A stretch of 64,000 nt of DNA, from the NCBI GenBank assembly GCA_963796275.1, contig CAWCKY010000007.1, forward strand, positions 1 to 64,000, in the 5' to 3' direction. This DNA is from an uncultured Acidobacteriota bacterium. GTDB lineage: Bacteria; Acidobacteriota; Blastocatellia; RBC074. A program made the translations under genes and the position numbers. The notes below the pieces were generated by a model. The model worked only from the letters and a program-made list of their open reading frames with translations. It searched no databases and was not told the origin of the DNA. This document shows, piece after piece, positions 28,256-60,546 of the stretch (within the stretch, counting starts at the first letter, position 1; each line of letters starts with the position of its first letter).

Positions 28256-28846
28256 ATGCGAAATTCACAAATCCAGCCTGAAGTATCGCGACAGCTTGTC
28301 CTGACGGCAGCCAACCCCCCGGCCAGCCCAGAAGATGAGATCGCGCCGAATATCGAAGACCAACTGGTGGAGGTCTTCCATAAGTTGAGCATCCCTGTGT
28401 TTTGGTATCTGAGACGGATCGGCCTTTGCCCGGAGGAAGCGGAAGAGATCGTTCAGGAAGTCTTCCTGCGTCTCTTCCAGCATCTCGATGCAATAGAGGA
28501 GCAAGGCCATATGCGAAGATGGGTCTTTCGTGTCGCGCACAATCTGGCGATAGACCAGCATAGACGACAAAGACGTTTCACTCTTAAGAGCCCGCAAGAA
28601 TGGACAGAATTGAGCGACCTGGTTCGAGATCGAGCCATCAATCCTGAAGAGCGGCTGCTCGAGGAAGAGCGGATCGCCATGCTCGAGCGGGCCCTTGGCA
28701 CGTTGACTAGCCGGCAAGCGCAATGTCTCGATTTAAGAATGGAGGACTTGAGCTATCGTGAGATTGGCGCGCTGCTCGGGGTAAGTGTCTCGACCGTAGC
28801 TGGAGCTCTGAAACTGGCGATCCTGAAGTTACGCGAGAGCGGATAG
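28256..28846 (+). CDS. ECF-family sigma-70 factor
   Basis: AEEIVQEVFLRL and WVFRVAHNLAID (region 2); LSYREIGALLGVSVSTV (region 4). Confidence 0.93.
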   Translation: MRNSQIQPEVSRQLVLTAANPPASPEDEIAPNIEDQLVEVFHKLSIPVFWYLRRIGLCPEEAEEIVQEVFLRLFQHLDAIEEQGHMRRWVFRVAHNLAIDQHRRQRRFTLKSPQEWTELSDLVRDRAINPEERLLEEERIAMLERALGTLTSRQAQCLDLRMEDLSYREIGALLGVSVSTVAGALKLAILKLRESG

Positions 28847-29006
28847 TGCAGGCGGCGAGCGGCGTAACTCATCCAAAATGCGGCTCGCGTCCAACCTTAA
28901 AAGAAGAAAAATAGACCGTGAAAAATGAATAAACCCCAAGGAAGATCGAGAGAACCTTACCACCAGCGGCAGTATCTCGGGTTTCCTTGATGAAGGAAGG
29001 AACACA

Positions 29007-30107
29007 ATGAGGAGGGAAACGAACGCGAGGACCGGCCTTCCATGCGGCGTCGAAATCGTTTCGGCTCGGGATTTCTCAGGGCTCGAGGTGGAAATACCAG
29101 CGAGCTTCGAGTTGCGCTTTCCTCAGTGTTGGATTGCGCAGCCGGTTCAGAACCGGTACGCAGTGGCGATTGAGCGCGAGACCCTCGCCTGGCTCGCGTC
29201 TTATGGCATCGGGCGGAGCCGCGACGAGGCGGAGAAACTGCGCAAGTTCAACTGTGGCTTATACGGCGGATACTCGCTCCCCGCAGCGAATTACCAGGCG
29301 GCGCTCCTGGTGACTCAGTTCATCTCGCTCTGGCTATTCTGGGACGATGCGCAGGTCGAGGAGGAAGACGACTTTTGCATCGAGGTGGTTCTCGAAGCAT
29401 TGATCGGCGCCACCGAGCCGCGTGCGCCCTCCCGCTACGTGGCCGCCTGGACCGACATCGGACGGCGATTGCGCAGGACCCAGAGTGCCGCGTGGCTTGG
29501 TCGACTTGAGTCGACAATGCGGGAGTGGCTCGAAAACGCCAGGCTCGAGACACGCCTGGCGCAGGAGTTCAAGCGAGGCGTAGCCTGCCCGGACTTCAAG
29601 ACACTCTTCGATTGCCGGACTATCAGCATCGGCATGTTCCCGACATTCCACCTGATCGAGCTCGCCGAGGGATTCGAGCTTGATGGGTCGTTCCACGGGC
29701 ACGACTCAGTGATAGCGCTCAAGCGATTGGCTTCGCGGCTTGTGGGGGTGGGCAATGACCTCGGTGGTCTGGCGAAGGACATCAGCAACCGATGGCTCAA
29801 TCTCGTTCTCGTCCTGATGGAACAGTCTTCCCTGAATATCGAAGACGCGTTCCAGCGGATCGTTGACATCCACAATGCCGATGTCGAGGAGTTCGACCGT
29901 CAGGCGTTGGAGATGCCGAGCCGGGAGTATTGGACCGACGCCCTTATTCGCGGCTGGGTTCAGGCCGTGCGCCACAATGTCTTTGGTTTCACGTTGTGGG
30001 AGTCCACTGCCGAGCGTTATCAGGAATCCAAAGCCATTGCGGGCAGGAAAGCATTGATCGCTCCTGTCGCGCTCGTTCGCGTCCGCCCTCCGGCGCAGGC
30101 GGCATAG
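29007..30107 (+). CDS. Class I terpene synthase (variant metal-binding motifs)
   Basis: WDDAQVEE (DDxxxE), RTISIG pyrophosphate-sensor Arg, NDLGGLAKD (NSE variant), WESTAERY (WxxxxxRY). Confidence 0.85.
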   Translation: MRRETNARTGLPCGVEIVSARDFSGLEVEIPASFELRFPQCWIAQPVQNRYAVAIERETLAWLASYGIGRSRDEAEKLRKFNCGLYGGYSLPAANYQAALLVTQFISLWLFWDDAQVEEEDDFCIEVVLEALIGATEPRAPSRYVAAWTDIGRRLRRTQSAAWLGRLESTMREWLENARLETRLAQEFKRGVACPDFKTLFDCRTISIGMFPTFHLIELAEGFELDGSFHGHDSVIALKRLASRLVGVGNDLGGLAKDISNRWLNLVLVLMEQSSLNIEDAFQRIVDIHNADVEEFDRQALEMPSREYWTDALIRGWVQAVRHNVFGFTLWESTAERYQESKAIAGRKALIAPVALVRVRPPAQAA

Positions 30108-30123
30108 AAAAAGAGCTTTTGAC

Positions 30124-30522
30124 ATGCGCGTTGACGAGTACAACTGGAAGCTGGAGCAAATGATGGACGCGACGGCATCAGGCTACGTTGCGGCTGTGAA
30201 AGCTCACAAGCCTGAATGCCTGTATCGCGATTTCTGCTTATGGGGAGTAGCGCGGGATAACCCCCATCGCTCGACGGTAATGCAACTGACGGGAGCCTTA
30301 CAGCTGGCGAAACTTGTGACCAGACTGTATGACGCCGCTCTCCTCGTCCGATTACAAAACAACATCGGCACTGGGTTGTTTACTTGTGATAACTCGACCC
30401 GTCTAATGCTCGCGCACAAACTTATGAAAAGAAGCGGAGAGCGCGAGGATGAGAGCCTCGTCGAGTTATTAGTAAGAACCGGTAAGGAGTATGCCGTGAT
30501 GATATCGCCTGTCAGGAGCTGA
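30124..30522 (+). CDS. Hypothetical protein or gene remnant within the terpene cluster
   Basis: 132-aa ORF starting 16 bp after the terpene synthase stop, same strand. No motif recognised. Confidence 0.45.
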   Translation: MRVDEYNWKLEQMMDATASGYVAAVKAHKPECLYRDFCLWGVARDNPHRSTVMQLTGALQLAKLVTRLYDAALLVRLQNNIGTGLFTCDNSTRLMLAHKLMKRSGEREDESLVELLVRTGKEYAVMISPVRS

Positions 30523-30640
30523 CGCGCGCGCATCCTTGAGAGAAGTAAAATTGACCACGAGCAATGAATAACATGAAGAAAGATCGAGCAGATCATTCGC
30601 GCTCTTCATTGCTTCCCGCTTGATTTTCTGAGGAGGCGAC

Positions 30641-31680
30641 TTGGAACAACGTAACTTGTTACTCGAGAGCTCGCTGATTCCCTCGGCGACTATGCTCGAC
30701 CATGTCATAGACCTGAAAATCGGCGGGCCGGTGGGTGACTGGTTGGATGAAACACTACTGATGCCCGTCTCGGACATACTGGGCGTCCGTCGAAACGGTT
30801 TCGCGCGAAGCTCGTGCAGTTTGGGTGCCTGTTGACCAGCCAATATTCCGATCTGACTGACACCGAGCGCGAGCTATGTCACCGATTAGGTGACCTGATC
30901 GAGTTGCTTCACGCCGGGTCTCTGGTGGTGGACGATATCGCGGATCAGAGCCAGGTGCGCCGAGGCCAGCCGTCCATTCACCTGAAATACGGCTTGCCCG
31001 TGGCGCTCAACGCGGGCAACTGGCTCTATTTCTGGCCGTTGATGTTAGTCGCCGCGATGCGACTGCCGCCGGAAAAGGAGCTTTGGGTGCATCGCCTCTG
31101 CCACCACATAATGATGAAATTACATTGCGGCCAGGCCCTCGATTCCGGCGTCCGAGTCGATACTCTGCCACAAGAGAAAGTAGCCGGCGTCTGCCTGGCC
31201 TCGATGGAGTTGAAGACCGGCGCCATGACCGCTCTCGCTCTCTCGCTCGGCTCGGCGGCGGCAGAATCGCCAGCGGAAGACTTTCCGGCCCTGGATGAGT
31301 TCGGCCATAGCTTTGGCGTCGCCCTGCAGATGTTCGACGATATCGGAAATCTGCAAGGCCGTAAGGAACTGGAAAAACGATATGAAGACCTGATCGCACG
31401 GCGGCCCTGCTGGGTCTTGGCCTTCGCCGCGCAGAATCTCCCGGGACAGTCCTATCGAACGTTCATTGAAGCGATTCAACTCCTCCCCGATGACGGGCCA
31501 CTGCAAGACTGGATAGCTGAACAAGATTTTCTCAACCAGGCGCGTCGCGACGCGCTCAAGTACCTCGAACTGGTCTTTCAAAGATTCGAGAGCGCTTTAG
31601 GACCGGAGCGTCATAACAAAGCCGAGGCGTTGGAGAGGCTACATCTATTAGGTAAACAAGTCTCCGACAGTTATTACTGA
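30641..31680 (+). CDS. Trans-polyprenyl diphosphate synthase (GGPP synthase-like), with one frameshift near 30780
   Basis: RBS GAGGAGG with TTG start. KRFR motif after the shift, then ELLHAGSLVVDDIAD....RRG (FARM), GQALD, KTG and QMFDD (SARM). Confidence 0.88.
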
Positions 31681-31754
31681 GAGCTTCCATTCACCGATTA
31701 TGTCTGCCGCCGAGCTGATTATCGAGTCGCAGAATACCAAGGAGCGTCACATAG

Positions 31755-33302
31755 ATGGCTTACGCTGAAAATGAGTGTCTGACCGAGCTGCGGAATCTGG
31801 TTCTCGAACTCGGCCGGGATGGTGGCCTCATAAGCCCGTCGGTCTATGACACTGCGCAGGTTCTGCGATTGTCTCCCTTAACCGGCGACTGCGCGAGCAC
31901 GGTCGCCTGGCTGATCGCCCGGCAGCATTCCGACGGCGGATGGGGGCATCCATCGGCGACCCGCGCCCGCGACCTGCCGACGCTGGCCGCGGCTCTGGCT
32001 TTGCGCGCACAGCGCGGTTCCAAAGACGCTTCCGACGCGGCTCAGGCGGGATTCGCCTTTCTGCGACGCTATGCGCAGCAACACTGGTCCGAACCGCTGG
32101 CCGATGATCTGCCGGTAGGGATCGAGCTGCTGCTGCCGCGATTGCTCGGCGAGGCGGCATCTCACGGGATCGATCTGCCGGCCAAGCCGTATCAGTCGCT
32201 GCGAGCGCTTGGTACTCGCAAGCGACTGATAATCGCGGCAACGAAGCCGAGCGCGGGCTCGGGACCGGTGTACTCCTGGGAGGGGTGGGGATTTCAGGCC
32301 GCCCCGGAAGTTATAGACGGTTCCGGCGGCGTAGGACATTGCCCCGCGGCCACTGCCGCATGGCTGGCGATGACGGCAAAACGCAATGACCTTAATGGGG
32401 TTTTTAACCGAGCTGCGCGCCGGTTTTTGAAAACAGCCTCCGCAGCCTCCGGCGAGAGCGACTCCAGCTTAATGCCTGTTGTTTGGCCTATCAATCGCTT
32501 TGAACAGATAGGGGGGCTCCACGCCCTCTCCCTTGCCGGCTTGGTTGACCATCCTCAGCTGCGAGACGCGGCGCGAGCCCAAATTCTCGACCTCAGCCAC
32601 GCGTTGCGTCCGGACGGAATCGGCAAGAGCGATCATTTCAGCGTTAATGGCGATTGCACATTTATGGCGATCGCCACGCTGATCGCTGCTGGACATCAGG
32701 TCAATAGCCGCGTGATATATCGTTTCCGGCAGAAAAATTCCTTCATCACCTATCCGATCGAGCTTCAACCCTCCTTGACTGCGACCGCTCACGCCGTGCT
32801 AGCGCTGGCACGCGCTCGCGACGATGTCAGCTGCTTCGCGCGATATCTCGAAAGCAAAGAGTCGCCCGACGGCCGTTGGGTCGGCGACAAGTGGCACAAT
32901 TCGTGGTTGTACACCACGGCGGAAGTGATCATTGCGTTGGCACAGGCTAACCGGACAAAGGCCCTGCCAGCCGCGGTCGCCGCGCTGCTCTGGCATCAGC
33001 GTGAGGGTGGCGGATGGGGCTGCGCCGATCGCCCGACGCTGGCGGAGACCGCATACGCAGCATTGGCGCTCCACATGCTCCGCTCGCGCGGCACTTGCAC
33101 CAAACAGGTTCACCTTGCGCTTGAGCGGGCCGCCGCGTGGCTCGCCGATAACTACGAAGCAATGTCACCGCGAAATGACATCTTCTGGATATCCAAGGAA
33201 CTCTACTGCCCCTACCGGGTCGACCGCGTGTTTATTTTGAGCGCCGTTCTCGCTCTCCATCAAGAATGCGGCGGGAGGAGTAACAATAACAATGCTGCAT
33301 AG
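31755..33302 (+). CDS. Class II (protonation-initiated) beta-gamma diterpene cyclase, copalyl/kolavenyl/halimadienyl-PP synthase-like
   Basis: SPSVYDTA, QW repeats QHSDGGWG and QREGGGWG, PAATAAW, DKWHNSWLYTT, ETAYA, WISKELYCP. The DxDD position reads NGDC. Confidence 0.88.
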   Translation: MAYAENECLTELRNLVLELGRDGGLISPSVYDTAQVLRLSPLTGDCASTVAWLIARQHSDGGWGHPSATRARDLPTLAAALALRAQRGSKDASDAAQAGFAFLRRYAQQHWSEPLADDLPVGIELLLPRLLGEAASHGIDLPAKPYQSLRALGTRKRLIIAATKPSAGSGPVYSWEGWGFQAAPEVIDGSGGVGHCPAATAAWLAMTAKRNDLNGVFNRAARRFLKTASAASGESDSSLMPVVWPINRFEQIGGLHALSLAGLVDHPQLRDAARAQILDLSHALRPDGIGKSDHFSVNGDCTFMAIATLIAAGHQVNSRVIYRFRQKNSFITYPIELQPSLTATAHAVLALARARDDVSCFARYLESKESPDGRWVGDKWHNSWLYTTAEVIIALAQANRTKALPAAVAALLWHQREGGGWGCADRPTLAETAYAALALHMLRSRGTCTKQVHLALERAAAWLADNYEAMSPRNDIFWISKELYCPYRVDRVFILSAVLALHQECGGRSNNNNAA

Positions 33303-33539
33303 AGGAACTATATGAGTGCAGCGATGCGACCTGATTCTGGCGTGCTGGAATATCCTCGTCTTCGGTGACTCCTGCACATCCTCCGTGTCGTATGAAGATT
33401 TCGAGCGACTGGCCGGGAGGTGGAACGGGCATTCGTAAATTCCTTCACGCCGATTATGGCGATGATGATGCCCGAATTATTGACATTCAGCTTGGTCGTT
33501 TAATTCTATGCCGAATTGCCGCGTAGTAACACGATGAGT

Positions 33540-33905
33540 TTATTTCGGCGTTTCAACGCCGGCACCGCCATCCATCACACATTGCGTCACCTTGTGACTC
33601 CTGACTTCAACCGTCGCTATGCAACGCAACGCTCTGATAATACCTACCGGCGTTGATGTTGTTTGAAAATAAATGCAATTACGCAGGGGCAGACCTATGT
33701 GTCATTTGTGTCAAGATAAGCCGTAATCTTCGTAACATCTGGCCACTGAGCGCCCCTTTGGGACATAGGAGCCAGCCTTATTCTTATCTTGGCGCATGAC
33801 CTATGTGTCGGCCCCGGAGTGCGCAACTGTGAACCGGGGGCAGACAACAGGTTAAACATCGGCCTGCCCCCTACGTTGGATGACGTGGTTGCAGCAATTT
33901 TTCAA
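33540..33905. repeat. REP-like palindromes and possible RAYT transposase remnant
   Basis: Palindrome cggcgtttcaacgccg; two copies of gacctatgtgtc; ggggcagac...ctgcccc pairing; a PTLDDVV..FK-like fragment. Confidence 0.4.
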
Positions 33906-34158
33906 ATTCAACCTCAGGTCTACGATTGCGCGTCTTTTTTACAATAGGCGTCCTGAAAATATTGAAAAGTTTGACTCAAGGCAGAACGGGAATAATTTAA
34001 ACGGCACACCGAAAAAAATCGCCTGAAACCGTTATAGAGGAGCATGCTGATTAGGCGTGGATTGCTGGGTAGAAGGGGATATCCGCAGCTTGGATGAAGC
34101 CTGAATGATGGGTTTATATCTCGCAAGGTCGCGAAGGCGTGGGGGCGCAATTAGTGAA

Positions 34159-35463
34159 ATGAGCTGTTCAGTCGAAACATCACTTTGGAACGATTTTTCA
34201 CGCATGTCATACCAGCAGCGCGCTGGCCGCATCGCCGAACTGGCGCGTCTCGACCAGGCTTCAATTGAAGCGTTGAGTGGCCGCACGGTCACGGCGGATA
34301 TCGGGTTGGCAGAAAGATGCGTGGAGAACGCCATCGGCTATTTCGCGGCGCCCCTGGGAGTCGCCGCTTATATGCTTATTGACGGACGCGACGTCGTCGT
34401 GCCGATGGCCGTCGAGGAGACATCGATCATCGCCGCGGCGTCGAGCGCCGCAAAATTCTTCTACCCCCACGGCGGCGTCACCACCAGAACCGAAGGCACC
34501 CTGGGTATCGGCCAGATCCAGATACCGAGGGCGAGAGATTCGGGTCGCATCATAGAAACTGTTATAGCCAATCACGACCTGCTGCTCGCTTGCGCCAATG
34601 AACTGGTACCAGGCTTGATCGCTCGCGGCGGCGGGGCGCAGCGCATCGAAGGGCGCGTTTTGCCTGGAATGGTAGTGGTCTATATCTATGTAGACACCTG
34701 CGACGCGATGGGCGCCAACCTGATCAATCAGATATGCGAAGGACTGAAGCCCCTCATTGAGGACTTGACCGGGGAAGAAGTCGGCGTCTGCATTCTTTCG
34801 AACCTGACTGACACGCGCATGTCGTTTGCGACTGCGCGCGCACGACAGATTGACCGGCGTCTGGTCGACGGGATCGTCAACGCCTATGAGTTCGCCGCGC
34901 AGGACCATTACCGCGCCGCGACGCACAACAAGGGAATCCTCAACGCCATCGACGCTATTTTATTGGCGACGGGCAATGACTGGAGGGCGATGGAGGCGGG
35001 CGCTCACGCTTACGCGGCCCTCGGCGGACACTACCGCCCGTTGTCGCGCTGGCGTCGTGAGGGTGACGACCTGGTCGGCGAGATCAGGCTGCCTACATCT
35101 GTTGGGATGGTAGGCGGTATGACCGGGATTCATCCGACCGCGCGAGCATGCCTGAAGATACTGGGCGCACAGACGGCTGCTGAACTGGGCCGAATCTGCG
35201 CCGCCGTCGGCTTGATACAGAACTTCGCGGCGCTACGCGCGCTGTCGACCGTCGGTATCGTCAAAGGCCATATGAATCTGCATGCGCGGAACCTGGCGGT
35301 TCTCGCCGGAGCGAATCAGGAAGAACAACCCATGTTAGTCGAGAAGCTGCGCGAGGAACTACTGCATAAAAATCGGATAACGCTGACCCAGGCGCAGGAC
35401 ATTTTGTTAGATATCCGAAACAACGCGGTAACAGGAGGCGCGCTTATGTCGCCCCGTGAGTGA
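34159..35463 (+). CDS. mvaA: HMG-CoA reductase, class II
   Basis: ENAIG, MAVEETSIIAA, DAMGAN, RAATHNKG, GNDWRA, GIVKGHMNLH. Confidence 0.95.
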   Translation: MSCSVETSLWNDFSRMSYQQRAGRIAELARLDQASIEALSGRTVTADIGLAERCVENAIGYFAAPLGVAAYMLIDGRDVVVPMAVEETSIIAAASSAAKFFYPHGGVTTRTEGTLGIGQIQIPRARDSGRIIETVIANHDLLLACANELVPGLIARGGGAQRIEGRVLPGMVVVYIYVDTCDAMGANLINQICEGLKPLIEDLTGEEVGVCILSNLTDTRMSFATARARQIDRRLVDGIVNAYEFAAQDHYRAATHNKGILNAIDAILLATGNDWRAMEAGAHAYAALGGHYRPLSRWRREGDDLVGEIRLPTSVGMVGGMTGIHPTARACLKILGAQTAAELGRICAAVGLIQNFAALRALSTVGIVKGHMNLHARNLAVLAGANQEEQPMLVEKLREELLHKNRITLTQAQDILLDIRNNAVTGGALMSPRE

Positions 35464-35560
35464 CGCCCTGTGAGACTGAAAATAGCATGGGAGTTCAAGC
35501 TTTAGCCAAAGCTTTAACCTGGCATCTGCCATTGAAAGTTACATACGGAGGATTCTTAAC

Positions 35561-36808
35561 ATGGTCGGAATGGAAGCTTTGGCCTTTTCAGTGCCGCAAT
35601 ACTATATCAACTTAAGTGACCTGGCGGTCGCGCGGGGAATTGACCCGGACAAGTATACCGTCGGTCTTGGCCAACGCGAGATGTCCATCGCTACACCTTG
35701 CGAAGACGCTGTTACTCTGGCCGCCGGAGCGGGACAGCGGCTGCTAGCCAGCTTCGACGTCGATCCGGGGTCCATCGCCTTGCTCATTGTCGGCGCCGAA
35801 ACCGGGATTGATCATAGTAAGCCGATCGCCAGTTACGTTCATGAGTTACTCGGCTTATCCACTCTATGTCGATCTTTCGAGATCAAACATGCATGCCACG
35901 GCGGCATGGCCGGACTATTTACGGCTTCGCAGTGGACAATGTCAGGTCGCGCCGCGGGCAAGAAGGCTCTCATCATCGCCACTGATATCGCGAGATACGG
36001 AGTTGGAGCGCCTGGCGAGCCGACGCAGGGGGCCGGCGCCGTCGCGATGCTGATTTCGGACAATCCAGCGTTGCTCGAGTTCGACACGGACGCCGAAGGC
36101 TACTACTCGAAACAGGTCATGGACTTTTGGCGCCCTATCTACAGCAAAGAGGCCTTCACCGACGGCCACTATTCAATATCCTGCTACCTCGACGCCTTGC
36201 AATACTCCTACGCTGCCTATCGCCGTGATTCCGGCCGCGACGGCGACCCGCATTTTGCGGACCGCTTCGTCGCCTGCCTTTATCACGCGCCGTTCGTGAA
36301 GATGACTCAGAAGGCTCATCAGCGATTGTTGGAGACCGACGCAGGGGCGCCGTTCGCATCCGACAGCCCCGAGATGCAAAGCGCCAGAGATGACTTTGCC
36401 AGGCGAGTGGTGCCTTCGCTGGAGATCAATGCGCGCGTGGGCAACATCTACACCGGATCGCTTTTTCTGTCGCTGGTCAACTTTCTTGAAGACCAGGCCG
36501 AGGGTAACGCCGGGCGCACGATCAGTCTATTCAGTTACGGCAGCGGCTGCCAGGCCGAGTTCATCACCGCCAGAGTCGGAGAGCGGGCTGGACAGGCGAT
36601 GAAACGACAAAGTTTTCGAACGGTTCTGGACGCTCGCACGCGCCTCGACGTGCGTCGCTACGAAGAGATTCTCGAGGCGAACGGAGTGGCAGATCTCAAC
36701 GATTCGAAGGTTTGCGACCCGGAGGTCTGGGGCGTCGCGGGACCATTCGTATACGCAGGGGCGCATAACCATCAGCGGCAGTACGTCAGCCGATCTTCGA
36801 CAATTTAG
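35561..36808 (+). CDS. mvaS: HMG-CoA synthase
   Basis: ETGIDHSK, IKHACHGG (catalytic Cys), GEPTQGAGA, DFWRP, GNIYTGSL, FSYGSG. Confidence 0.96.
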   Translation: MVGMEALAFSVPQYYINLSDLAVARGIDPDKYTVGLGQREMSIATPCEDAVTLAAGAGQRLLASFDVDPGSIALLIVGAETGIDHSKPIASYVHELLGLSTLCRSFEIKHACHGGMAGLFTASQWTMSGRAAGKKALIIATDIARYGVGAPGEPTQGAGAVAMLISDNPALLEFDTDAEGYYSKQVMDFWRPIYSKEAFTDGHYSISCYLDALQYSYAAYRRDSGRDGDPHFADRFVACLYHAPFVKMTQKAHQRLLETDAGAPFASDSPEMQSARDDFARRVVPSLEINARVGNIYTGSLFLSLVNFLEDQAEGNAGRTISLFSYGSGCQAEFITARVGERAGQAMKRQSFRTVLDARTRLDVRRYEEILEANGVADLNDSKVCDPEVWGVAGPFVYAGAHNHQRQYVSRSSTI

Positions 36809-37037
36809 CCGGAGTTGAGTACGGCCTCGATTGATGAATGGCCGTCTCGATTACGACTCCTAACGCCGCCTTCCTGGACCACGCGTATAAAAAGAGCTCT
36901 CACGGATATGGCGAACTACCAGATATGTTATGTCAACGAATATTTTTTCTCTTGAAAAGGAGATCAAAGAAACATATCCCTTCCAATCAGGTTATCGCCC
37001 GGCGTGACGAATACGTTATCTGCTAATCATTGCTGCT

Positions 37038-38090
37038 ATGGATATCGAACAGTTCGAACAACGGAAGCAGGATCACATCGCGCACTCATTGAGCACGGTC
37101 AACCAGGCCATAGGCATGAGCGGCCTGGAATCCATCCATCTATATCACGAGGCCATCCCGGACCTCGACTTCGAAGAGATCAGCCTAGTAACGACATGTT
37201 TCGGAATGGTGTTACCCACGCCCTTTTACGTCGCGAGTATGACGGCGGGACATGCGGACGCATTGAGCATCAATTGGATGCTGGCGCAGGCATGCCAGGA
37301 GCGCGGATGGGCTATGGGAGTGGGTTCGCAGCGCCGCGAATTGGAGGCCCGATTGGACGCCCGAGCGATAGATGATTGGCAGAGTCTTCGCCGGGCGGTT
37401 CCGGGCCTCGCGCTATTCGCCAACATCGGCATAAGCCAACTGATCAAGGCAGAGGTCTCAGATATCCGTCATCTCGTCGAGTCGCTCGATGCCCAGGCTC
37501 TGTGTGTTCACCTCAACGCATTGCAGGAGGCGATCCAGCCGGAGGGCACTCCGCAGTTCAAGGGGGCCTGGCGGGCGATCGAAACTCTCTGTCGCGAGTT
37601 GGGTTGTCCCGTCATCGTCAAAGAGACCGGATGTGGTTTCCACCGTTCGACGCTGCGCCGCCTCGCTCAGATCGGTCCGGTGGCGCCTTCAGCAGTAGAT
37701 GTCAGCGGACTCGGCGGCACACACTGGGGAAGGATCGAAGGCGCGCGCGCAGGCTTCCACACGCTGCATCAGTCGGCCGCCGCGACTTTCGCCAACTGGG
37801 GAGAGGCTACCGTCGAGAGCGTGCTGGCGGCGCGATTGGAGCTGTCTCCTCAGACGGAGATATGGGCGTCGGGAGGGGTTCGGTCCGGCCTCGACGCCGC
37901 CAAGCTTATCGCACTTGGGGCTCATCGCGTCGGCTATGCGAAGCCCGCACTGGATGCGGCGCTCACCGGGCCAATCGAACTGCGCCGTTGGATGGAGTTG
38001 CAGGAGTACGAGCTGCGAGTCGCTTTGTTCTGCTCCGGCTGTGCCACTACCGCCGTTCTGCGGGACAAGACTGGCTCGTGGGAGATGTAG
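37038..38090 (+). CDS. fni: Type 2 (FMN-dependent) isopentenyl-diphosphate delta-isomerase
   Basis: RKQDHI, SMTAG, GVGSQR, HLNALQEAIQPEG, VKETGCG, GGTHW, ASGGVR. Confidence 0.96.
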   Translation: MDIEQFEQRKQDHIAHSLSTVNQAIGMSGLESIHLYHEAIPDLDFEEISLVTTCFGMVLPTPFYVASMTAGHADALSINWMLAQACQERGWAMGVGSQRRELEARLDARAIDDWQSLRRAVPGLALFANIGISQLIKAEVSDIRHLVESLDAQALCVHLNALQEAIQPEGTPQFKGAWRAIETLCRELGCPVIVKETGCGFHRSTLRRLAQIGPVAPSAVDVSGLGGTHWGRIEGARAGFHTLHQSAAATFANWGEATVESVLAARLELSPQTEIWASGGVRSGLDAAKLIALGAHRVGYAKPALDAALTGPIELRRWMELQEYELRVALFCSGCATTAVLRDKTGSWEM

Positions 38091-38224
38091 GGAGATTTTA
38101 CGAGACGCAATCAGGTTATCCGAGGAGATACCAAGCGCAAAGCGCAACGGGCTCCACGCGTACCACTCGCACAACATCTGCGCCGATCGGGTTCGTCCAG
38201 CGCTTGATATGGAGATTTTATAAG

Positions 38225-39169
38225 GTGTGTAGTTTCGATATTGCCGGGAAAGTTTTTGTTTTGGGTGAGTACGCGGTCCTGGGCGGATTGCCCGCTCTGG
38301 TGGCCGGCGTCGCCCCGCGCTTCTCCGGTTCGCTGCGTGAGGCTATGGATGAAGGCCCCTACTGGCACGCGGACAGCCCTGTAGGCCGCCTACTGCGCTG
38401 GGCCCGGGAACACTGCGGGGTGAGATTCTCCTTCCATTTCGAGGACCCTTATCATAGTGGGGGCTTCGGCGCTTCGACAGCGCAGTTTGCCATTGCCTAT
38501 GCCGCTGGGGCTGTGCGGCTCGGGTTGAGTTGCGATTGGCGAACCGCATGGCAGTTCTACCGCAAATTGACGGGCGCTGATGAAACGACTCCGAGCGGCG
38601 CCGATCTCGTCGCTCAGCTGCGGGGAGGAGTAACCCTCTTCAATCCGGTTTCGCTGAGCTGCGCGGACATCTGGGACGAATTCGACTGGTCGCGGCTGCT
38701 GGTCTTTGCGCCGAATGCGCAACCTGATCGAAAGGTCGCCACACACGTTCACCTCAAAGAGTTTTCCCTGGGAAGCCAAGAGATCGATCGCACCCAGCTG
38801 TTTTCCCGTTTGGCGGACCCCTTAAAAAAAGGCCTCACAGCGATAGATCGAAAGAGCGTCTACGATCTGGGCGCGGCGATGGATTGGTACGCCGACGCGC
38901 TCGCCGAAAACGGCCTGGAGGCACGTGTCACTTTCGAGGACCGGCGGGCGCTCAGGGCGATGCCGGGCGTGTGCGGAGCGAAGGGTGCCGGCGCTATGCA
39001 AGCAGATGTTGTACTTGCGCTCATGACGCCGGACGCGGATGCAGAGCCGATTATTCGGTCGGCACGGACACGCGGGTTGAAGCTGATATGTCATGGGTTG
39101 ACGCGGCAACCCGGAATCCAACCCCTTTTGCCACAGAAACACGGAGCCACGGAGCTTACGAGTAGGTAA
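38225..39169 (+). CDS. GHMP kinase, probable phosphomevalonate kinase
   Basis: GKVFVLGEYAVL, GGFGASTA, PSGADL, KGAGA. Likely GTG start after GGAG; the upstream part of the 597-aa ORF overlaps fni and is spurious. Confidence 0.8.
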   Translation: MCSFDIAGKVFVLGEYAVLGGLPALVAGVAPRFSGSLREAMDEGPYWHADSPVGRLLRWAREHCGVRFSFHFEDPYHSGGFGASTAQFAIAYAAGAVRLGLSCDWRTAWQFYRKLTGADETTPSGADLVAQLRGGVTLFNPVSLSCADIWDEFDWSRLLVFAPNAQPDRKVATHVHLKEFSLGSQEIDRTQLFSRLADPLKKGLTAIDRKSVYDLGAAMDWYADALAENGLEARVTFEDRRALRAMPGVCGAKGAGAMQADVVLALMTPDADAEPIIRSARTRGLKLICHGLTRQPGIQPLLPQKHGATELTSR

Positions 39170-39180
39170 AGGATATTCAT

Positions 39181-40200
39181 ATGCCTCAGGGAGCGATTTT
39201 CGAGATTCCATTTCCGTCGATGATCAATCCACATCTGGCGCCGGCGCGTGCCGCCAATCTTTCCTGGGTCCGCGCCCGTGGCCTGGCGCGCAGCGAGGCC
39301 AGGATGGAGGAGTACCTGTCGTGGGACCTGCCGCAGCTGACCGCCCGGACCTATCCATATGCCGACCGCGCCGATCTGGAAATGCTGATGAACTTTTTCA
39401 GCATTTTTTTCCTTATTGATGACGAGTTCGATGAACCGCAGGGCGACCGGCGGGCGCAACTGGCCGCGGTGACCCAGGAGATGATCACCATCCCGTTTCG
39501 TCCGGCAGGAGCCCCTCCGGACATCGTCTGCCCGATCACGCTGGCATGGGTCGAAGTATGGACGGACATGCGCCGCGGGATGTCGGAAACCTGGCAGAAC
39601 CTATTTGCATCGAACTCGGCGCGTTTCCTCACCGCCAGCTTGGAAGAGGAGCGCCTTGCCGCCAGCTCGGCGGTATTGGATCTCAACTCGTACGTGGAGC
39701 TGCGCCGCCATAGTGTGGGCGTCTATCACGGATTCGATTTGGCCGAGCGGAGCCGGGGCTTCGAGGTCCCGCCTCACGCGCATTCCCACCAGCGGATGCG
39801 CGACCTTCGCGCCGCTGCGACGGACACAATCGGGTTCATGAACGATGTGCATTCTCTAGAGCGGGACGAGCGCAAGGGCAAATCCTATAACCTAGTCGCT
39901 GTACTGCGAAGGGAACTCCGCTGTTCCCGGGCGGACGCCATTGAACGGGCTGTGCGGATGGCCCGCGAGCGGCTCAAGGCGGCACTCGAATTGCAAGCGA
40001 AGAGCCCGCACATCAGCGCCGAACTGAGACTTTCCAGCAACGAGTGCGTGGCGGTGGAACGGGGTGTGGAGGGAATCCGGAACTGGATCCGCGGCTACCA
40101 CGATTGGGCCTGTCAGAGCAGAAGGTACGCGGCGTCAGGCCCGATCGAATCATCGCTGGCTCCTGTCCGGCATGAGGATGATCTACTGGCCCTGACCTGA
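39181..40200 (+). CDS. Class I terpene synthase (pentalenene-synthase-like fold, canonical motifs)
   Basis: DDEFD, RRHSVG, NDVHSLERD, NLV, WACQSRRY. Confidence 0.95.
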   Translation: MPQGAIFEIPFPSMINPHLAPARAANLSWVRARGLARSEARMEEYLSWDLPQLTARTYPYADRADLEMLMNFFSIFFLIDDEFDEPQGDRRAQLAAVTQEMITIPFRPAGAPPDIVCPITLAWVEVWTDMRRGMSETWQNLFASNSARFLTASLEEERLAASSAVLDLNSYVELRRHSVGVYHGFDLAERSRGFEVPPHAHSHQRMRDLRAAATDTIGFMNDVHSLERDERKGKSYNLVAVLRRELRCSRADAIERAVRMARERLKAALELQAKSPHISAELRLSSNECVAVERGVEGIRNWIRGYHDWACQSRRYAASGPIESSLAPVRHEDDLLALT

Positions 40201-40283
40201 AATTCTATATCGGAACAACCGACATTGGCGCATCGAGTGAAATATAAAATATTTCACATGCCATTCGGCAACGGAGAAAAGAC

Positions 40284-41387
40284 ATGCAACTAACTGTGTG
40301 CGCCCTCGCTCCATCTAACATAGCGATAGTTAAATACATGGGAAAGCAGGACGACGCGACCAACATACCTGAGAACCCGAGCCTGTCAATGACGCTGAAC
40401 AGGCTGCGCAGTTGCGTGGAGATAACTTGCGCCAACGCGGATGGCCCGGCTGAGGCGACGTGGGTGCCAGAGCCTCCGCTTCTGTGGAGCAGACAGGCGA
40501 GTCTCAAACTCGAAGTCCCGCGTCTCGATGAAGCTGGAATAGCCCGCTTTTTGCGCCACTTCGAGCGCGTGCGTCGTGCCGCGCCGGCGATACTTGCGAG
40601 ATACGGAGTACCGATTACCGCGCAGGATGGAGAGAGGTGCTCTTATCTGATTCGAAGCGGGAACACCTTTCCGTCGTCGACCGGCATCGCATCGAGCGCC
40701 GCCAGTTTCGCCGCACTGACATTGGCGACGGCGATGACGCTCATAAGCGATCAAGCAGCATTTGACGGCACCTGGGAATCGGAAACGGGTTTGCGAAGAG
40801 ATATGGCGAGCCTGTCGCGACAAGGATCAGGCAGCTCTTGCCGCTCGTTTGAAGGTCCCTGGGTCGGATGGGAGGCGGATCGCGTTTTTAAAATGAATGC
40901 CTCGACGCCGGAGCTTAGCCACTTCGTTTTGCTGGTCAGCGACGAGGCCAAGAAGATTCCTTCTTCCAGGGCCCACCAGCTCGTTAAGGAATCACCGCTA
41001 TGGACGGGGCGCGTGGAGCGCGCGAGCGCGCGATTCGAGCAGGCCTGCAGGGCACTATCTGAAGGAGACCTGACCCGCCTCGCCCGAATCGCGTGGAGAG
41101 AAGCCTGGGAGATGCACAGCTTATTCCACACTACGGCTGAGCCTTTCTCATATTGGCGCCCCCGCAGCATAGAGTTACTTCAGTGGCTCGCGCCGGCGAT
41201 CAACGGGCCGGCACCTGCCATCGTTTCGCCCCCGATCGTCTCGATGGACGCCGGTCCGAACGTGCATCTGATCGTCGAGGCGGCAGATGCTGATATGTGG
41301 CGTGAGAGATTGATTCGCCGTTACGGCGCGGGCGCTTTCCTCGAAGATGAGCCGGGCGACGGCGCCGCCCCATTCGGGCGATGTTGA
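40284..41387 (+). CDS. mvaD: Diphosphomevalonate decarboxylase
   Basis: APSNIAIVKYMGK, NPSLSMTL, GIASSAASFAAL, RQGSGSSCRS, MDAGPNVH. Confidence 0.95.
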   Translation: MQLTVCALAPSNIAIVKYMGKQDDATNIPENPSLSMTLNRLRSCVEITCANADGPAEATWVPEPPLLWSRQASLKLEVPRLDEAGIARFLRHFERVRRAAPAILARYGVPITAQDGERCSYLIRSGNTFPSSTGIASSAASFAALTLATAMTLISDQAAFDGTWESETGLRRDMASLSRQGSGSSCRSFEGPWVGWEADRVFKMNASTPELSHFVLLVSDEAKKIPSSRAHQLVKESPLWTGRVERASARFEQACRALSEGDLTRLARIAWREAWEMHSLFHTTAEPFSYWRPRSIELLQWLAPAINGPAPAIVSPPIVSMDAGPNVHLIVEAADADMWRERLIRRYGAGAFLEDEPGDGAAPFGRC

Positions 41388-43332
41388 TGAAGCTCTATCA
41401 CCACCCAACATAACAATGTTTTCATTACCACTTATGACTGACTTGCGGCATAGACCGGGCGCCGCCAACAGACCCGTCCCGAACCCTGATGCCGATGTAA
41501 AAAGGGCGATCGGATTTCTGCGCGAGCGATGCGCCCCGAATGGATTTCCCTCTTTTGTTTCCCCAGATCCCGGCTTTTCTTCGCAGGTCGAGTCCGCCGA
41601 AGAAGTGTTCACGTCCATGCTGATTCTGCGCTCATTTGATGACTGTGGCCTGGACGCGCCAGGTGAGAAACGTCAACTTGAGAGAGTTTGTCGGTCTTTC
41701 ACTCGGCAGGGTTTCGTTCACTTTTTTGCGGACCGCGGCATGCTCGCGGCGGACGTCGACTGCACAGCGGCGGGGATCGAGCTGGCGCTCAAGCGCGGCA
41801 TATCGCTGGCTTTCGACGTCAAGCGCGTACTGGATGTCATTGCCGCGAACGTCGACGATTCCGGTGTGCTATGCGTCTATCTCGATCCCGATGAAAGTCG
41901 AAAGGATCGCGTGGACGCGGCCGTCTGCGCCAACACGCTCTACCTCTTTTATATGCTCGGCCGCGAAGCCGATCTGAAGGCTTCCGAGCAATACGTCTGG
42001 AATCAACTTACGGGGATCCGGTTCTCGGAGGGAACGCGCTATTACCCGTCCCCTGACATTTTCCTGCTGTTCCTGTCACGACTGCTCGCTGATTTTGAAC
42101 GCTCCCGAGCCCGTTTTGCAGCTGCGGTGGAATGGCGGATTCGCGAACGACTCGGCCTGCCCGGATCGAATGTCGAGCTTTCCGCACGCGTGACAGCGGC
42201 GTGGAAAGTGGGGTTACACGCGGAGCGGGAGTTGGATGAACTCGCGCGTGCCCAGAGAGTCGACGGCTCGTGGCCGGCCGCGCCCTGCTTCCGATTCGGA
42301 CGCCGGCCGGTGTATTTCGGCGGGGAGAGCCTTTCCACAGCCTGGGGCGCATGCGCCCTGATGATCGGTTCGCGGCGCCTTCCACGCACGGCGCTCGCGA
42401 GAGAAGTCGTCATGGACGGCTCCGGCGGATCGCGACTCAGCGAGCGGATCACCTATCCGTTTGGTTGTTTCGAATTGAATGCGGATCAGATTGAGCTGGT
42501 CCGAGACGAACTTGCCAGCCTGTCCGATCGCTACCAGCTCTTCGAGGGGCGGGAGGAGTGGAATCACATCCTCCTGACCTTCATCACCTATTGCTCCGCA
42601 CGCAGCCCCGAGGACGACGCCCTACGTCTGCTCTGTCATTTTCTGTATATGACGGTGTTTTTTAACGAGGCCCGCTCGCGGGGGCTGAATCGGGATTTAG
42701 CGCTCAACTACGCGGGAATTATGAGAGGCGGGCAAGCGCGCGCTTCCCATCCCGTACTCAGTGCCGCGCGAGATTTCCGTCTGCGGTTCGATCGGCTGCT
42801 CGCGGCGAAGGAGAGCGACGCCTCGGCCTTTTTCCATTACTTCGGTCTCAACATCTCCTCCTTCTTGCGAGACGCGACGGCCGACCATTCCGATCCTCGC
42901 GACCCGCGCACATCCCTGTGGGTGCGATTACACTCCATTTCCGCCCTTGCCTACTTCCAATTCTGGAAACTGCTTCTCAGGGTCGGCGCGCGCGAGGAAC
43001 TGCCTCACGCCACTGACATCTTCCGGTGTGAAATGCTGTCGGCCAGAATTCAAAGCCTCGCTAACGATATCTGTTCTATCGAAAGGGACGCGCGCGAGGA
43101 CTCTCTGAATATAGTATCCGTAGTTGCCCAGCGCGAGAACATTCCGTACAAGCTGGCGTTGAGTACGGTTCGACGATGGCACGACGACGCCGTAACGGAG
43201 TACGCCGACGCCACCCGCCGCGCGAGCAAGGTTACTCCGCCAGGCCCGGTTGCCGATTACCTGGAATTCATTGAGTCCTGCACAGCAGGGAACGTGCAGA
43301 GCATGCTTTCCCTTGCGTCCAGGTATTCATAA
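41347..43332 (+). CDS. Putative bifunctional terpene cyclase: class II beta domain fused to a class I alpha domain (true start may be 41416 or 41434)
   Basis: N-half: DVDCT, RVDAAVCANTLYLF, GTRYYPSPDIFL, QRVDGSW. C-half: RLHSIS, NDICSIERD, NIV and terminal RY. Confidence 0.8.
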   Translation: MSRATAPPHSGDVDEALSPPNITMFSLPLMTDLRHRPGAANRPVPNPDADVKRAIGFLRERCAPNGFPSFVSPDPGFSSQVESAEEVFTSMLILRSFDDCGLDAPGEKRQLERVCRSFTRQGFVHFFADRGMLAADVDCTAAGIELALKRGISLAFDVKRVLDVIAANVDDSGVLCVYLDPDESRKDRVDAAVCANTLYLFYMLGREADLKASEQYVWNQLTGIRFSEGTRYYPSPDIFLLFLSRLLADFERSRARFAAAVEWRIRERLGLPGSNVELSARVTAAWKVGLHAERELDELARAQRVDGSWPAAPCFRFGRRPVYFGGESLSTAWGACALMIGSRRLPRTALAREVVMDGSGGSRLSERITYPFGCFELNADQIELVRDELASLSDRYQLFEGREEWNHILLTFITYCSARSPEDDALRLLCHFLYMTVFFNEARSRGLNRDLALNYAGIMRGGQARASHPVLSAARDFRLRFDRLLAAKESDASAFFHYFGLNISSFLRDATADHSDPRDPRTSLWVRLHSISALAYFQFWKLLLRVGAREELPHATDIFRCEMLSARIQSLANDICSIERDAREDSLNIVSVVAQRENIPYKLALSTVRRWHDDAVTEYADATRRASKVTPPGPVADYLEFIESCTAGNVQSMLSLASRYS

Positions 43333-44198
43333 TGTGGGTTAAGTTTAAAACCTGTCTACCAGGAAAATGGGTCCTGGTTGGAGAACATGCTGTGATGCGC
43401 GGCGGTATGGCCATCGTCTTCCCTTTCCCGGAAGTGAGCCTCTGCCTCGACTTTGTTCCGCAACGAAGCAAAAAGCTGAAAGTTACTCCGCCGGACGCTG
43501 AGCCAGTGATACATGAGCTACTCAGAACTTATGAAAGTTGGAGGAGTGGGAATGACGGGTTTTCCTTGCCCATGGGCAGCCTGACCATTCAGAGCGATAT
43601 ACCTCAAGGCGCCGGCCTCGGCTCTTCAGCCGCTTTGTGCTCGGCTGTGGCGCGGTGGATCGCCAGCGCCACAGGTCTTCCGTTAACTGAGCTGGCTGAA
43701 CTTGCGCGCTGTTTGGAGTCCCGTTTTCACGGCGCCAGCAGTGGCATGGACATCGCGGTCGTGCTTGCCAATGCGCCGATCGTATTCGAGAAAGGCGGTC
43801 AGCCGCGAATACTGAAGCTCGGGAGAATTCCCCATTTCACTCTGCACGATACGGGGTTGCGGTCGAACACTTCCGATTGTGTCTCACGGGTAAAGACATT
43901 CATAGCCAGAAATCCGAAGAGGGCTACCGCCGTAGACCGGGCGATGGACGCTGCGTCATTCCAAGCGTTGAAAGGGCTATTGAATTACGGCCGCGGTGAA
44001 GAACAGGCCGGGTTGAAGGCGATCGCCGAAGGAATGCGAATGGCGCTTGATTGTTTTGGCGCCTCGAACTGGGACCTGATTTCCGGAGACGAAGAGCGAT
44101 TGATCCGGTCGCTGCTGAACGATGGCGCGTTGGCCGTGAAGCCGACGGGGGCAGGTGGAGGCGGTATGGCACTGGCGCTCTGGGATCGCCCAGGATGA
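43332..44198 (+). CDS. Mevalonate kinase (GHMP family)
   Basis: PGKWVLVGEHAV, PQGAGLGSSAA, FHGASSGMD, KPTGAGGGG. The start overlaps the upstream stop (TAATG). Confidence 0.9.
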   Translation: MWVKFKTCLPGKWVLVGEHAVMRGGMAIVFPFPEVSLCLDFVPQRSKKLKVTPPDAEPVIHELLRTYESWRSGNDGFSLPMGSLTIQSDIPQGAGLGSSAALCSAVARWIASATGLPLTELAELARCLESRFHGASSGMDIAVVLANAPIVFEKGGQPRILKLGRIPHFTLHDTGLRSNTSDCVSRVKTFIARNPKRATAVDRAMDAASFQALKGLLNYGRGEEQAGLKAIAEGMRMALDCFGASNWDLISGDEERLIRSLLNDGALAVKPTGAGGGGMALALWDRPG

Positions 44199-44737
44199 TG
44201 CTAGCGCTCCGACGTTCAGTCGGCCCGTTCTCGGAGTTTATTCAGAGAAATGCTGCGCCTCAGCTGACCGTGTTCCCAGCTGAAAATATTCTTCATCGAA
44301 ATACCGTAAAAAACGGCCTGAAATCGTTATAGGAATGACAAATCGGAATGCACTTCAAAGAGCCTCTTAATGGCTTCTTTCCTGAGCAGCGCGATCGTGA
44401 GGCTATCAACTGACAGTTGATAAGGTCGCCTGACTCTCGAGATGACTACGGCATTTTGTTAGCTGGCATTCTGTCAATCAACTAATAAACCTATATCAGT
44501 TACTTCGGTTGTTCTGTTAATTTCAGAGCAACCGTTTTTTATGGTGAAACTGATTTGGGACAGATTTCGTCTGCCCCCGTGAGTTGACGGCATCACGTAT
44601 TCGCTTCGAGTTGATTCTGGTGTAGATTGCAGTCGTGTTGATATCTTTTGCCCGGTCTTTATGCCCGGTCACATCGCAAGCCGCAATGATGCGGCCCGTT
44701 CGGCAAGTCGAATATCGATCAAGGAGAAATATTCCGC

Positions 44738-60400: not shown

Positions 60401-60546
60401 CGATAAAAATGATGAGCGCCGCGGATTTCGCAGGCAGTCCTGCAATTTTACCCCAGGGAGGATAGAACAACATGGGAATACAAGGATTGAGATCGAGTCG
60501 GTTTAGCGGAAATGGATGTTCTCTTAGCAAAACCAAATACAAGCAT

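Follow-up and report, generated by a model that had tools for sequence, protein, structure and literature searches.

Does a bacterium that carries genes of the methylerythritol phosphate (MEP) pathway keep a second isoprenoid route for its terpene cyclases, and what would those cyclases make? The question is raised by a locus at positions 28256 to 44198 of a 64-kb window, the whole stretch of DNA analyzed here, from an uncultured Acidobacteriota bacterium (assembly GCA_963796275.1, contig CAWCKY010000007.1). The window is the start of a 1.07-Mb contig, and the genome comprises 9.46 Mb in 7 contigs and is 94.7% complete. Our reading, to which we give a probability of about 0.7, is that this ~16-kb locus is an accessory gene cluster for terpenoid biosynthesis, with an uneven distribution in its lineage and carried by a large acidobacterial-type genome that has MEP genes, and that it combines a dedicated mevalonate (MVA) operon and mainly C15 output with a fusion protein whose alpha domain removes diphosphate.

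Thirteen open reading frames (ORFs), all on the + strand, fill the locus with the limits given in a first reading made from the DNA letters (the sequence-only reading); 11 of the 13 were named by Pfam and NCBIfam. Module 1 (28256 to 33302) comprises an extracytoplasmic function (ECF) sigma factor, a class I terpene synthase (TS1), a small ORF (orf132), a polyprenyl synthase, and a beta-gamma class II cyclase. Module 2 (34105 to 44198) is one operon for the classical mevalonate pathway with two cyclase genes wired in: mvaA, mvaS, fni, a GHMP kinase of 314 amino acids (aa), a second class I terpene synthase (TS2), mvaD, a gene for a fusion protein, and mvk, with intergenic distances of -1 to 229 nt. 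The two cyclase genes located within the MVA operon are TS2 and the fusion, as the sequence-only reading had stated, and the coupling that it described between cyclase and kinase was found as a TAATG at 43330 to 43334, where the fusion stop codon overlaps the mvk start. Family scans of 28256 to 44198 found no P450, methyltransferase, transporter, or thiolase gene; the first three had already been noted as not visible.

The genes of a classical mevalonate pathway, for 3-hydroxy-3-methylglutaryl coenzyme A (HMG-CoA) synthase, HMG-CoA reductase, mevalonate kinase, diphosphomevalonate decarboxylase, and isopentenyl diphosphate (IPP) isomerase, are all present (Table 1). For mvk and mvaD, the best NCBIfam equivalogs fall below their cut-offs and the Pfam domains lie above theirs. 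The sequence of the 314-aa kinase matched nothing in Pfam, NCBIfam, or PDB. It has 80 homologues, many of them labelled "mevalonate kinase" by one source, with relatives of 42 to 44% identity in metagenome-assembled genomes (MAGs) of Oligoflexia. A profile built from 43 homologues matched PDB mevalonate kinases (2hfs, 1.6e-10), and the structural model (predicted local distance difference test [pLDDT] score, 92.7) has a GHMP kinase fold for which the top Foldseek matches are mevalonate kinases (TM, 0.74). Because a separate mevalonate kinase is present, this protein is presumed, by elimination, to be the phosphomevalonate kinase. The initial label of "PMK-like kinase" is thus supported, by profile and fold, as far as the GHMP kinase family; phosphomevalonate as the substrate is a presumption.

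A tblastn search of the genome found one copy of each of the six MVA genes and, for fni, a further 36% paralogue on another contig. This second type 2 IPP isomerase-like gene lies at C3:509771-510655, and the genome also has ispH. The nearest named MVA homologues are found in Bdellovibrionota MAGs (42 to 58%); among species representatives, the nearest mvaS genes are in a Bdellovibrionales MAG (58%) and an Oligoflexia MAG (53%), and no other cluster gene was found near mvaS at two Bdellovibrionota MAG loci. A thiolase was expected to come from elsewhere, and four copies over cut-off do lie outside the cluster and none within it; acetoacetyl-CoA would be supplied by these housekeeping thiolases.

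The MVA cluster is accessory, second to the MEP genes, because the host has MEP genes and its close relatives lack MVA genes. The MEP genes that the sequence-only reading had proposed to look for (dxr and ispD to ispH) were all found elsewhere in the genome over curated cut-offs, with ispD and ispF fused in one 411-aa frame. An HMG-CoA reductase query found no homologue in 36 same-family genomes or in 2 same-genus genomes (87% and 73% complete), and the 60 relatives searched yielded only two weak, nonorthologous matches (E, 1.8e-5 and 2.7e-4), both from a different family of the class. With the family model for HMG-CoA synthase, 0 of 80 same-family genomes had a match over cut-off. The call of an accessory cluster therefore holds, and MVA as the only, lineage-wide pathway, which would have told against it, was not seen among the same-family genomes searched. 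One same-genus genome carries, at G001:C506:26148-27263, an HMG-CoA synthase homologue (236.8 bits, 37% identical) whose surroundings, over the 32 kb examined, contain no further MVA gene; it may serve another pathway, e.g., polyketide beta-branching.

The gene dxs bears on the view that the MVA genes are the main isoprenoid route and are not reserved for secondary terpenoids. In favor of that view, this genome gave no dxs above the TIGR00204 cut-off. The best dxs-like match was a 681-aa fused E1 alpha-beta protein (C1:529445-529957, 79.6 bits), and the others were two ordinary transketolases and one further fused E1 alpha-beta protein. We nevertheless consider a main-route role highly improbable, since six other MEP genes are over cut-off and cyclase genes are interleaved in the MVA operon. 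Moreover, dxs over cut-off was found in 0 of 8 same-family relatives (G001 to G008), which lack the MVA pathway and in which the reductase was not found either, and the lineage must thus make isoprenoids without either. Among these, the unpublished G004 (70% complete) gave a partial dxs match of 187.6 bits; it is also counted in the reductase, synthase, and left-flank comparisons, and none of our conclusions hinges on it. Two genomes from other families of the class have a dxs at 833 bits.

Among 400 genomes sampled across the phylum, none gave a match to the fusion protein, and a search of named genome contigs gave only a 47-residue match in a Paenarthrobacter. Metagenome data contain closer relatives. 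Three orthologues lie on one 34,061-bp contig, at 82% for the fusion, 84% for the kinase, and 89% for the beta-gamma cyclase, and a scan for fusion loci returned only 3.6-kb and 1.3-kb contigs and one weak match. The mvaD-fusion-mvk order is found in relatives: locus L016 has the order kinase-mvaD-fusion, with TS2 not between kinase and mvaD, and locus L017 has the same fusion-mvk adjacency as here. The GC content of the cluster is 58.2%, compared with 54.3 ± 1.9% for 16-kb windows of the genome, which places it in the top 3.2%.

The N-terminal half of the fusion resembles the cyclase domain of AsDMS from Aquimarina spongiae (PDB 9mhs, 9m7d) and of the fungal AstC/AacA, proteins in which a HAD phosphatase is fused to a single beta-domain class II cyclase. 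Cyclases of this type are described as a single beta domain, and the middle Asp of their DxDT(T) motif is described as the general acid (PMC12232559 and PMC13684600 for both points; PMC13244436 and bioRxiv 10.1101/2025.09.20.677545 for the first). Fusion residues 24 to 317 match the AsDMS cyclase domain (9mhs residues 227 to 524) with an E value of 1.4e-27 and 26 to 27% identity, and the beta domain also matches AstC (E, 3.3e-19). An AlphaFold model of the fusion from 46 sequences (mean pLDDT, 90.6) shows two domains and a disordered linker (residues 323 to 339), with pLDDT above 90 over residues 21 to 322 of the beta domain, which Foldseek placed on 9mhs (E, 1.1e-16; root mean square deviation, 2.3 Å). 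DVDCT aligns on the DLDTT of AsDMS, the R-Y-Y substrate residues are also aligned, and all 14 of the 14 homologues compared share the four motif residues (D113, D115, C116, and T117). The single beta-domain fold and both acid-motif Asp residues of a beta-only class II cyclase are therefore present; there is no HAD domain, and thus no fused phosphatase of the AsDMS/AstC type. A direct comparison of the fusion with the beta-gamma cyclase gave no significant similarity. The sequence-only reading had taken this gene for a class II/class I fusion: the two cyclase types stand, and the protein is no diterpene-type enzyme but a beta-only domain, not the beta-gamma pair, joined to an alpha domain that lacks DDxxD.

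An exhaustive search with the beta domain returned 603 representative clusters, mostly stand-alone proteins of ~300 to 340 aa. The stand-alone form is also the commonest among the best 150 representatives, of which 16 are at least 590 aa long. When 14 of these long forms were scanned, 11 carried PF19086, 1 carried a histidine phosphatase, and 2 had no Pfam domain; in the 11 fusions with PF19086, the beta domain stands before the alpha domain in 7 and after it in 4. Shorter beta-domain fusions carry HAD or methyltransferase domains. Class I, HAD, methyltransferase, and histidine phosphatase domains all occur as partners of this one beta domain, a point in favor of our reading. Five of the proteins found (P0080, P0092, P0135, P0036, and P0102) include beta domains fused to S-adenosylmethionine methyltransferase or histidine phosphatase domains, a 1029-aa beta protein with an extra 360-residue N-terminal part, and a 4696-aa protein that matches the DxDCT region in 71 stretches.

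The C-terminal half, the only part of the fusion matched by PF19086, was placed by Foldseek on bacterial class I sesquiterpene synthases (TMt, ~0.8). DDxxD binds two of the three Mg ions in such enzymes. Here, FFNEARS stands in its place and no Asp-rich DDxxD/E motif is present, while NDICSIERD is kept. Five orthologues read IE(A/S)R(S/W) at the same site (FLIEARS, FLIESRW, or similar), so that the Asp-rich motif is lost and NDxxSxERD is kept in all 6; in the other beta-fused alpha domains aligned, the site is mostly NDxxx. In one pairwise comparison with a metagenome relative by the NG86 method, the ratio of nonsynonymous to synonymous substitution rates (dN/dS) was 0.29 for the alpha domain (versus L017), 0.26 for the beta domain, 0.17 for mvaD, and 0.19 for the kinase, values which indicate that the alpha domain is under purifying selection.

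We suggest that the alpha domain, with its NSE motif kept and DDxxD lost, would bind and remove a non-allylic diphosphate and so take the place of the HAD phosphatase of AsDMS. A broader proposal can be made only tentatively: beta-alpha fusions may be an undescribed class of bifunctional sesquiterpene synthase, in which a class I fold without DDxxD strips the non-allylic diphosphate from a drimane-type class II product, and in which the placing of the fusion between mvaD and mvk would co-translate supply and cyclization as a self-feeding unit.

Somewhat doubtful, in our view, is the idea that the alpha domain is a catalytically silent scaffold or diphosphate-binding lid and the protein just a drimenyl-type diphosphate synthase, whose product is dephosphorylated by unrelated phosphatases. 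Plant copalyl diphosphate synthases, whose alpha domain is inactive, would offer a parallel, and the idea fits both the absence of the Asp-rich motif from all 6 orthologues, with noncanonical sites in other beta-fused alpha domains, and the prevalence of stand-alone beta proteins among the best 150 representatives. A silent domain agrees less well with the kept NSE motif and with a dN/dS of 0.29, close to that of the beta domain, though a scaffold would also be under selection. Metagenomes contain the pair in either domain order, and PF19086 is present in 11 of the 14 long forms scanned, which speaks for a functional partnership.

A third view, which we consider unlikely, is that the alpha domain is a true class I enzyme and that the product is not a simple drimane. 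In one version it would act first, converting farnesyl diphosphate (FPP) into a neutral olefin or alcohol for protonation by the beta domain; in the other, its substrate would be a monocyclic product with an allylic diphosphate still attached. A class I fold modelled at pLDDT above 90 and an intact NSE motif are as this view would have them, as is the end of the fusion sequence (...SRYS), a C-terminal RY pair being typical of bacterial class I synthases. Gamma-beta-alpha diterpene synthases also couple class II and class I reactions in one chain (PMC11469919). The site of the missing DDxxD, however, holds a single Glu, and the close alignment of the beta domain is with enzymes that convert FPP into a bicyclic diphosphate. 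We retain diphosphate removal as the preferred role of the alpha domain.

The output of the cluster as a whole would be mainly sesquiterpenoid, because the similarities of TS1, of TS2, and of the fusion's beta domain are all to C15 enzymes. TS1 and TS2 both have the PF19086 fold with Asp-rich and NSE motifs, and both would ionize FPP in the class I manner. TS2 has canonical motifs, matches NF041564 (7-epi-alpha-eudesmol synthase) with 378 bits (cut-off, 680), and matches PDB 6q4s with 335 bits. TS1 is more distant: its closest solved relative is (+)-T-muurolol synthase (71 bits), and its NSE motif has Gly at the Ser/Thr position. The remaining cyclase, of 515 aa, aligns over ~480 residues with solved beta-gamma enzymes, namely, 6vpt (E, 4.8e-32; residues 19 to 500) and 7xkx (1.3e-25), which we take to be Rv3377c and SsDMS, respectively, and 5bp8 (8.4e-22), named as ent-copalyl diphosphate synthase in the structure search. 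Its homologues of 45 to 50% identity occur in Sorangium, Archangium, Chroococcidiopsidaceae, and Chloroflexota. Fold and sequence thus identify it, and its acid motif is not DxDD: the middle Asp is kept and the first is Asn, giving NGDCT where the solved enzymes have DxD(D/T)T. The motif starts with Asp (DGDxT) in 119 of the 120 proteins listed, including the 89% orthologue, which reads DGDCT; Asn occurs only here. Of the four cyclases, this is the only one that could be a C20 enzyme. A blend of sesqui- and diterpenes had been proposed at first, and its sesquiterpene part is consistent with these similarities; the diterpene part is unproven. The count of four cyclase genes was likewise right, with activity not assured for all four in view of NGDCT.

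The polyprenyl synthase has a broken frame, a feature missed at first reading together with the beta-only nature of the N-terminal half of the fusion. Read from GTG at 30814, the product is ~40 N-terminal residues short of every family model (NCBIfam offset). The stop-to-stop translation of 30751 to 31677 scores 136.6 bits, versus 130.4, and is aligned from residue 12, upstream of any start codon. A second frame (30632 to 30835) offers GAGGAGG-N4-TTG at 30641 and an ATG at 30692. These features indicate that the gene needs a frame change between 30751 and 30784; otherwise the protein would be missing its first ~40 residues. The first Asp-rich motif (DDIAD) is present, and the second reads DDIGN. 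The break could be an assembly error or a real mutation. A soil metagenome run (X1; share, 0.15) gave short, low-depth contigs that list no difference at the frame break or the Asn codon (32646 to 32648), with cover there not shown. The host genome has three other prenyl synthase paralogues, and FPP may come from these. The self-supply stated at first is therefore not assured.

Taken together with the Asn codon, the frame break suggests that the arm formed by the prenyl synthase and the beta-gamma cyclase may be impaired. Extending this to a decaying relic, in which the cluster, or at least that arm, has no product in this strain, seems to us quite improbable. The broken frame and an Asp-to-Asn change unique among the 120 proteins listed both point that way, as does a decayed, frameshifted TS2-like remnant of ~95 residues (65 to 75% identity) on the - strand at C7:927160-927454. 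Yet the other ten family-matched genes are uninterrupted and align with their families over their full length, dN/dS values of 0.17 to 0.29 relative to the metagenome relative indicate past constraint, and the break itself may lie in the assembly. An accessory cluster remains the reading that we prefer.

Several of these observations weigh against it. The MEP route is not demonstrably complete, as no dxs over cut-off was found here. The compositional deviation is modest, with a tetranucleotide distance in the top 7% only. On the pathway side, mvaS, mvk, and mvaD all score under their NCBIfam equivalog cut-offs, and the substrate of the 314-aa kinase follows by elimination. No start codon opens a readable polyprenyl synthase unless the frame changes. 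In the fusion, the fourth motif residue is Cys and not Thr, and a T274A change abolished the activity of AstC (PMC13244436). The unique NGDCT of the 515-aa cyclase is to be compared with the D271N form of AstC, a beta-only enzyme, which was inactive (PMC13244436). Lastly, an alpha domain without DDxxD makes class I chemistry doubtful, and no precedent was found for a diphosphate-removing role of this domain.

Control of the cluster by the ECF sigma factor is suggested by its position only; no anti-sigma gene adjoins it. A ~70-nt noncoding element occurs upstream of TS1 and again upstream of the polyprenyl synthase. The two copies align locally with a score of 49, compared with a mean of 16.6 (standard deviation, 2.3; maximum, 29) for 500 shuffles, and nhmmer found just these two copies in the 9.46-Mb genome (E < 1). 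The element is a candidate shared promoter or operator, and the two copies would mark two transcription units in module 1; that the ECF sigma factor acts on it is conjecture. The gap ahead of mvaA is presumed to be the regulatory region of the MVA operon. A promoter scan found no sigma-70-like site on the + strand, sites being fewer than in shuffled sequence, and a search for ECF-type -35/-10 patterns found none upstream of any cluster gene; its sole match, at 44546, lies downstream of mvk. No RNA run was listed as holding the cluster in a search of sequencing runs.

Table 1. Coordinates of the cluster features in the 64-kb window, with the matches on which each assignment rests
Feature	Position	Strand	Evidence and remarks
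ECF-type sigma-70 factor, 196 aa	28256-28846	+	TIGR02937 95.4 bits (cut-off 42.9), PF04542 53.3, PF08281 42.3
~70-nt element, copy 1 (candidate regulatory element)	28880-28950	+	Upstream of TS1; aligns with copy 2
TS1, class I terpene synthase, 366 aa	29007-30107	+	PF19086 82 bits; DDAQVE, NDLGGLAKD
orf132, unverified small ORF	30124-30522	+	No Pfam or NCBIfam match
~70-nt element, copy 2 (candidate regulatory element)	30520-30588	+	Upstream of polyprenyl synthase
trans-Polyprenyl diphosphate synthase, broken frame	30641-31680 (ORF from GTG 30814)	+	PF00348 130.4 bits; first Asp-rich motif (FARM) DDIAD, second (SARM) DDIGN
Beta-gamma class II terpene cyclase, 515 aa	31755-33302	+	PF13243 38.7 bits; acid motif NGDCT
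Gap without ORF, 802 nt, GC 49%	33303-34104	.	No Rfam match at E <= 0.1
mvaA, HMG-CoA reductase	34105-35463	+	TIGR00532 347.5 bits (cut-off 259.95); PF00368 312 bits
mvaS, HMG-CoA synthase	35561-36808	+	TIGR01835 357.4 bits (just below cut-off 360.35); PF01154 and PF08540 over cut-off
fni, type 2 IPP isomerase	37038-38090	+	TIGR02151 308.4 bits (cut-off 281.3)
Divergent GHMP kinase, 314 aa	38225-39169 (called)	+	Family profile and fold
TS2, class I sesquiterpene synthase-like, 339 aa	39181-40200	+	PF19086 133.6 bits; DDEFD, NDVHSLERD
mvaD, diphosphomevalonate decarboxylase	40284-41387	+	PF22700 94.2 bits, PF18376 39.7 bits; TIGR01240 142 bits (cut-off 171)
Fusion ORF	41347-43332, called start 41416	+	PF19086 in C-terminal half only; 638-aa called product (661 aa from ORF start)
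Fusion beta domain, residues 1-322	41416-42384	+	AsDMS/AstC-type single-domain class II cyclase, D113-V-D115-C-T
Fusion alpha domain, residues ~340-638	42433-43332	+	Class I terpene synthase fold; PF19086 35.2 bits
mvk, mevalonate kinase	43332-44198	+	PF00288 59.4 bits; TIGR00549 134 bits (cut-off 163)
Terminator-like hairpin, 11-bp stem and T run	44506-44534	+	Consensus match only; closes cluster, before bioB-like gene

The small ORF orf132 has an Atlas recognition of 2036, under the level of most real families, and a best Atlas match of 0.88. An Rfam scan of 27000 to 45000 matched no family and gave one subthreshold snoRNA match at 35924 to 35980. Downstream of the cluster lies a bioB-like gene (44738 to 45727) whose best match is 75% to an Acidobacteria MAG, and the Acidobacteriota-like host of the sequence-only reading was borne out on this basis. 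On the left flank, a 668-aa protein gave only Atlas leads under 0.9, one of them toward Acidobacteriota; its homologues in 40 relatives are all at most 47% identical, so no empty-site comparison is possible. A 1076-aa TPR-CHAT protein (14612 to 17842) and an 808-aa Ser/Thr kinase with a TonB C-terminal domain (18153 to 20579) are encoded upstream on the - strand, outside the cluster. Farther downstream are a fungalysin-type M36 metallopeptidase (46140 to 48722) and a multidomain alpha-1,3-glucanase (60472 to 63999), either of which could attack the cell walls of fungi. Antifungal activity is reported for drimenol (PMC12232559); a link between these two enzymes and the cluster terpenoids is speculation.

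How does the fusion compare with known enzymes? Like AsDMS, it joins a homologous beta domain to a second domain that possibly acts on diphosphate. It differs from AsDMS and AstC in its partner, an alpha domain of class I fold; in its domain order, with beta first; in its motif, DxDCT in place of DxDTT; and in the location of its gene within a mevalonate operon. With gamma-beta-alpha diterpene cyclases and synthases it shares class II and class I-type domains in one polypeptide; those enzymes (PMC11469919, PMC12164552) are described as acting on geranylgeranyl diphosphate and as combining a DxDD-bearing gamma-beta didomain with an alpha domain that carries DDxxD, whereas the fusion has neither gamma domain nor DDxxD, and its N-terminal part is one domain of ~300 residues of the C15 drimane lineage. 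A Sorangium cellulosum enzyme with DxDVT, described as a new mono-beta-domain sesquiterpene synthase, belongs to the same small beta-cyclase family, in which the fourth motif position varies, and unlike the fusion it is stand-alone, without an alpha domain (bioRxiv 10.1101/2025.09.20.677545). The class II architectures listed in PMC12232559, PMC13684600, and bioRxiv 10.1101/2025.09.20.677545 are beta, beta-gamma, and alpha-beta-gamma, and these papers treat AsDMS and AstC as unique beta-only enzymes acting on a diphosphate substrate. A literature search, with subscription journals and supplements outside its coverage, found neither a description of a beta-plus-class-I fusion nor a mevalonate cluster in Acidobacteria. 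In its first step the fusion would work as AsDMS does; for its second, no described enzyme is comparable.

Mevalonate cassettes devoted to secondary terpenoids are well established in actinomycetes, where they accompany terpenoid and meroterpenoid clusters such as those for terpentecin, furaquinocin, and naphterpin. As in those clusters, a second, dedicated MVA pathway here stands beside cyclase genes in a host with MEP genes. The host belongs to a different phylum, however, the gene order (mvaA-mvaS-fni-kinase-[TS2]-mvaD-[fusion]-mvk) differs, and the cyclase genes are interleaved with the pathway and not adjacent to it. A compact acidobacterial-type example with cyclases inside the operon widens where self-supplied clusters should be sought, and with so few genes it should lend itself readily to heterologous expression. 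Of greater importance is the fusion itself. An architecture of beta plus class I fold that recurs with either domain first would be a new means of processing the sesquiterpene products of class II cyclases, and the fusion is a testable system for the function of a class I fold without DDxxD.

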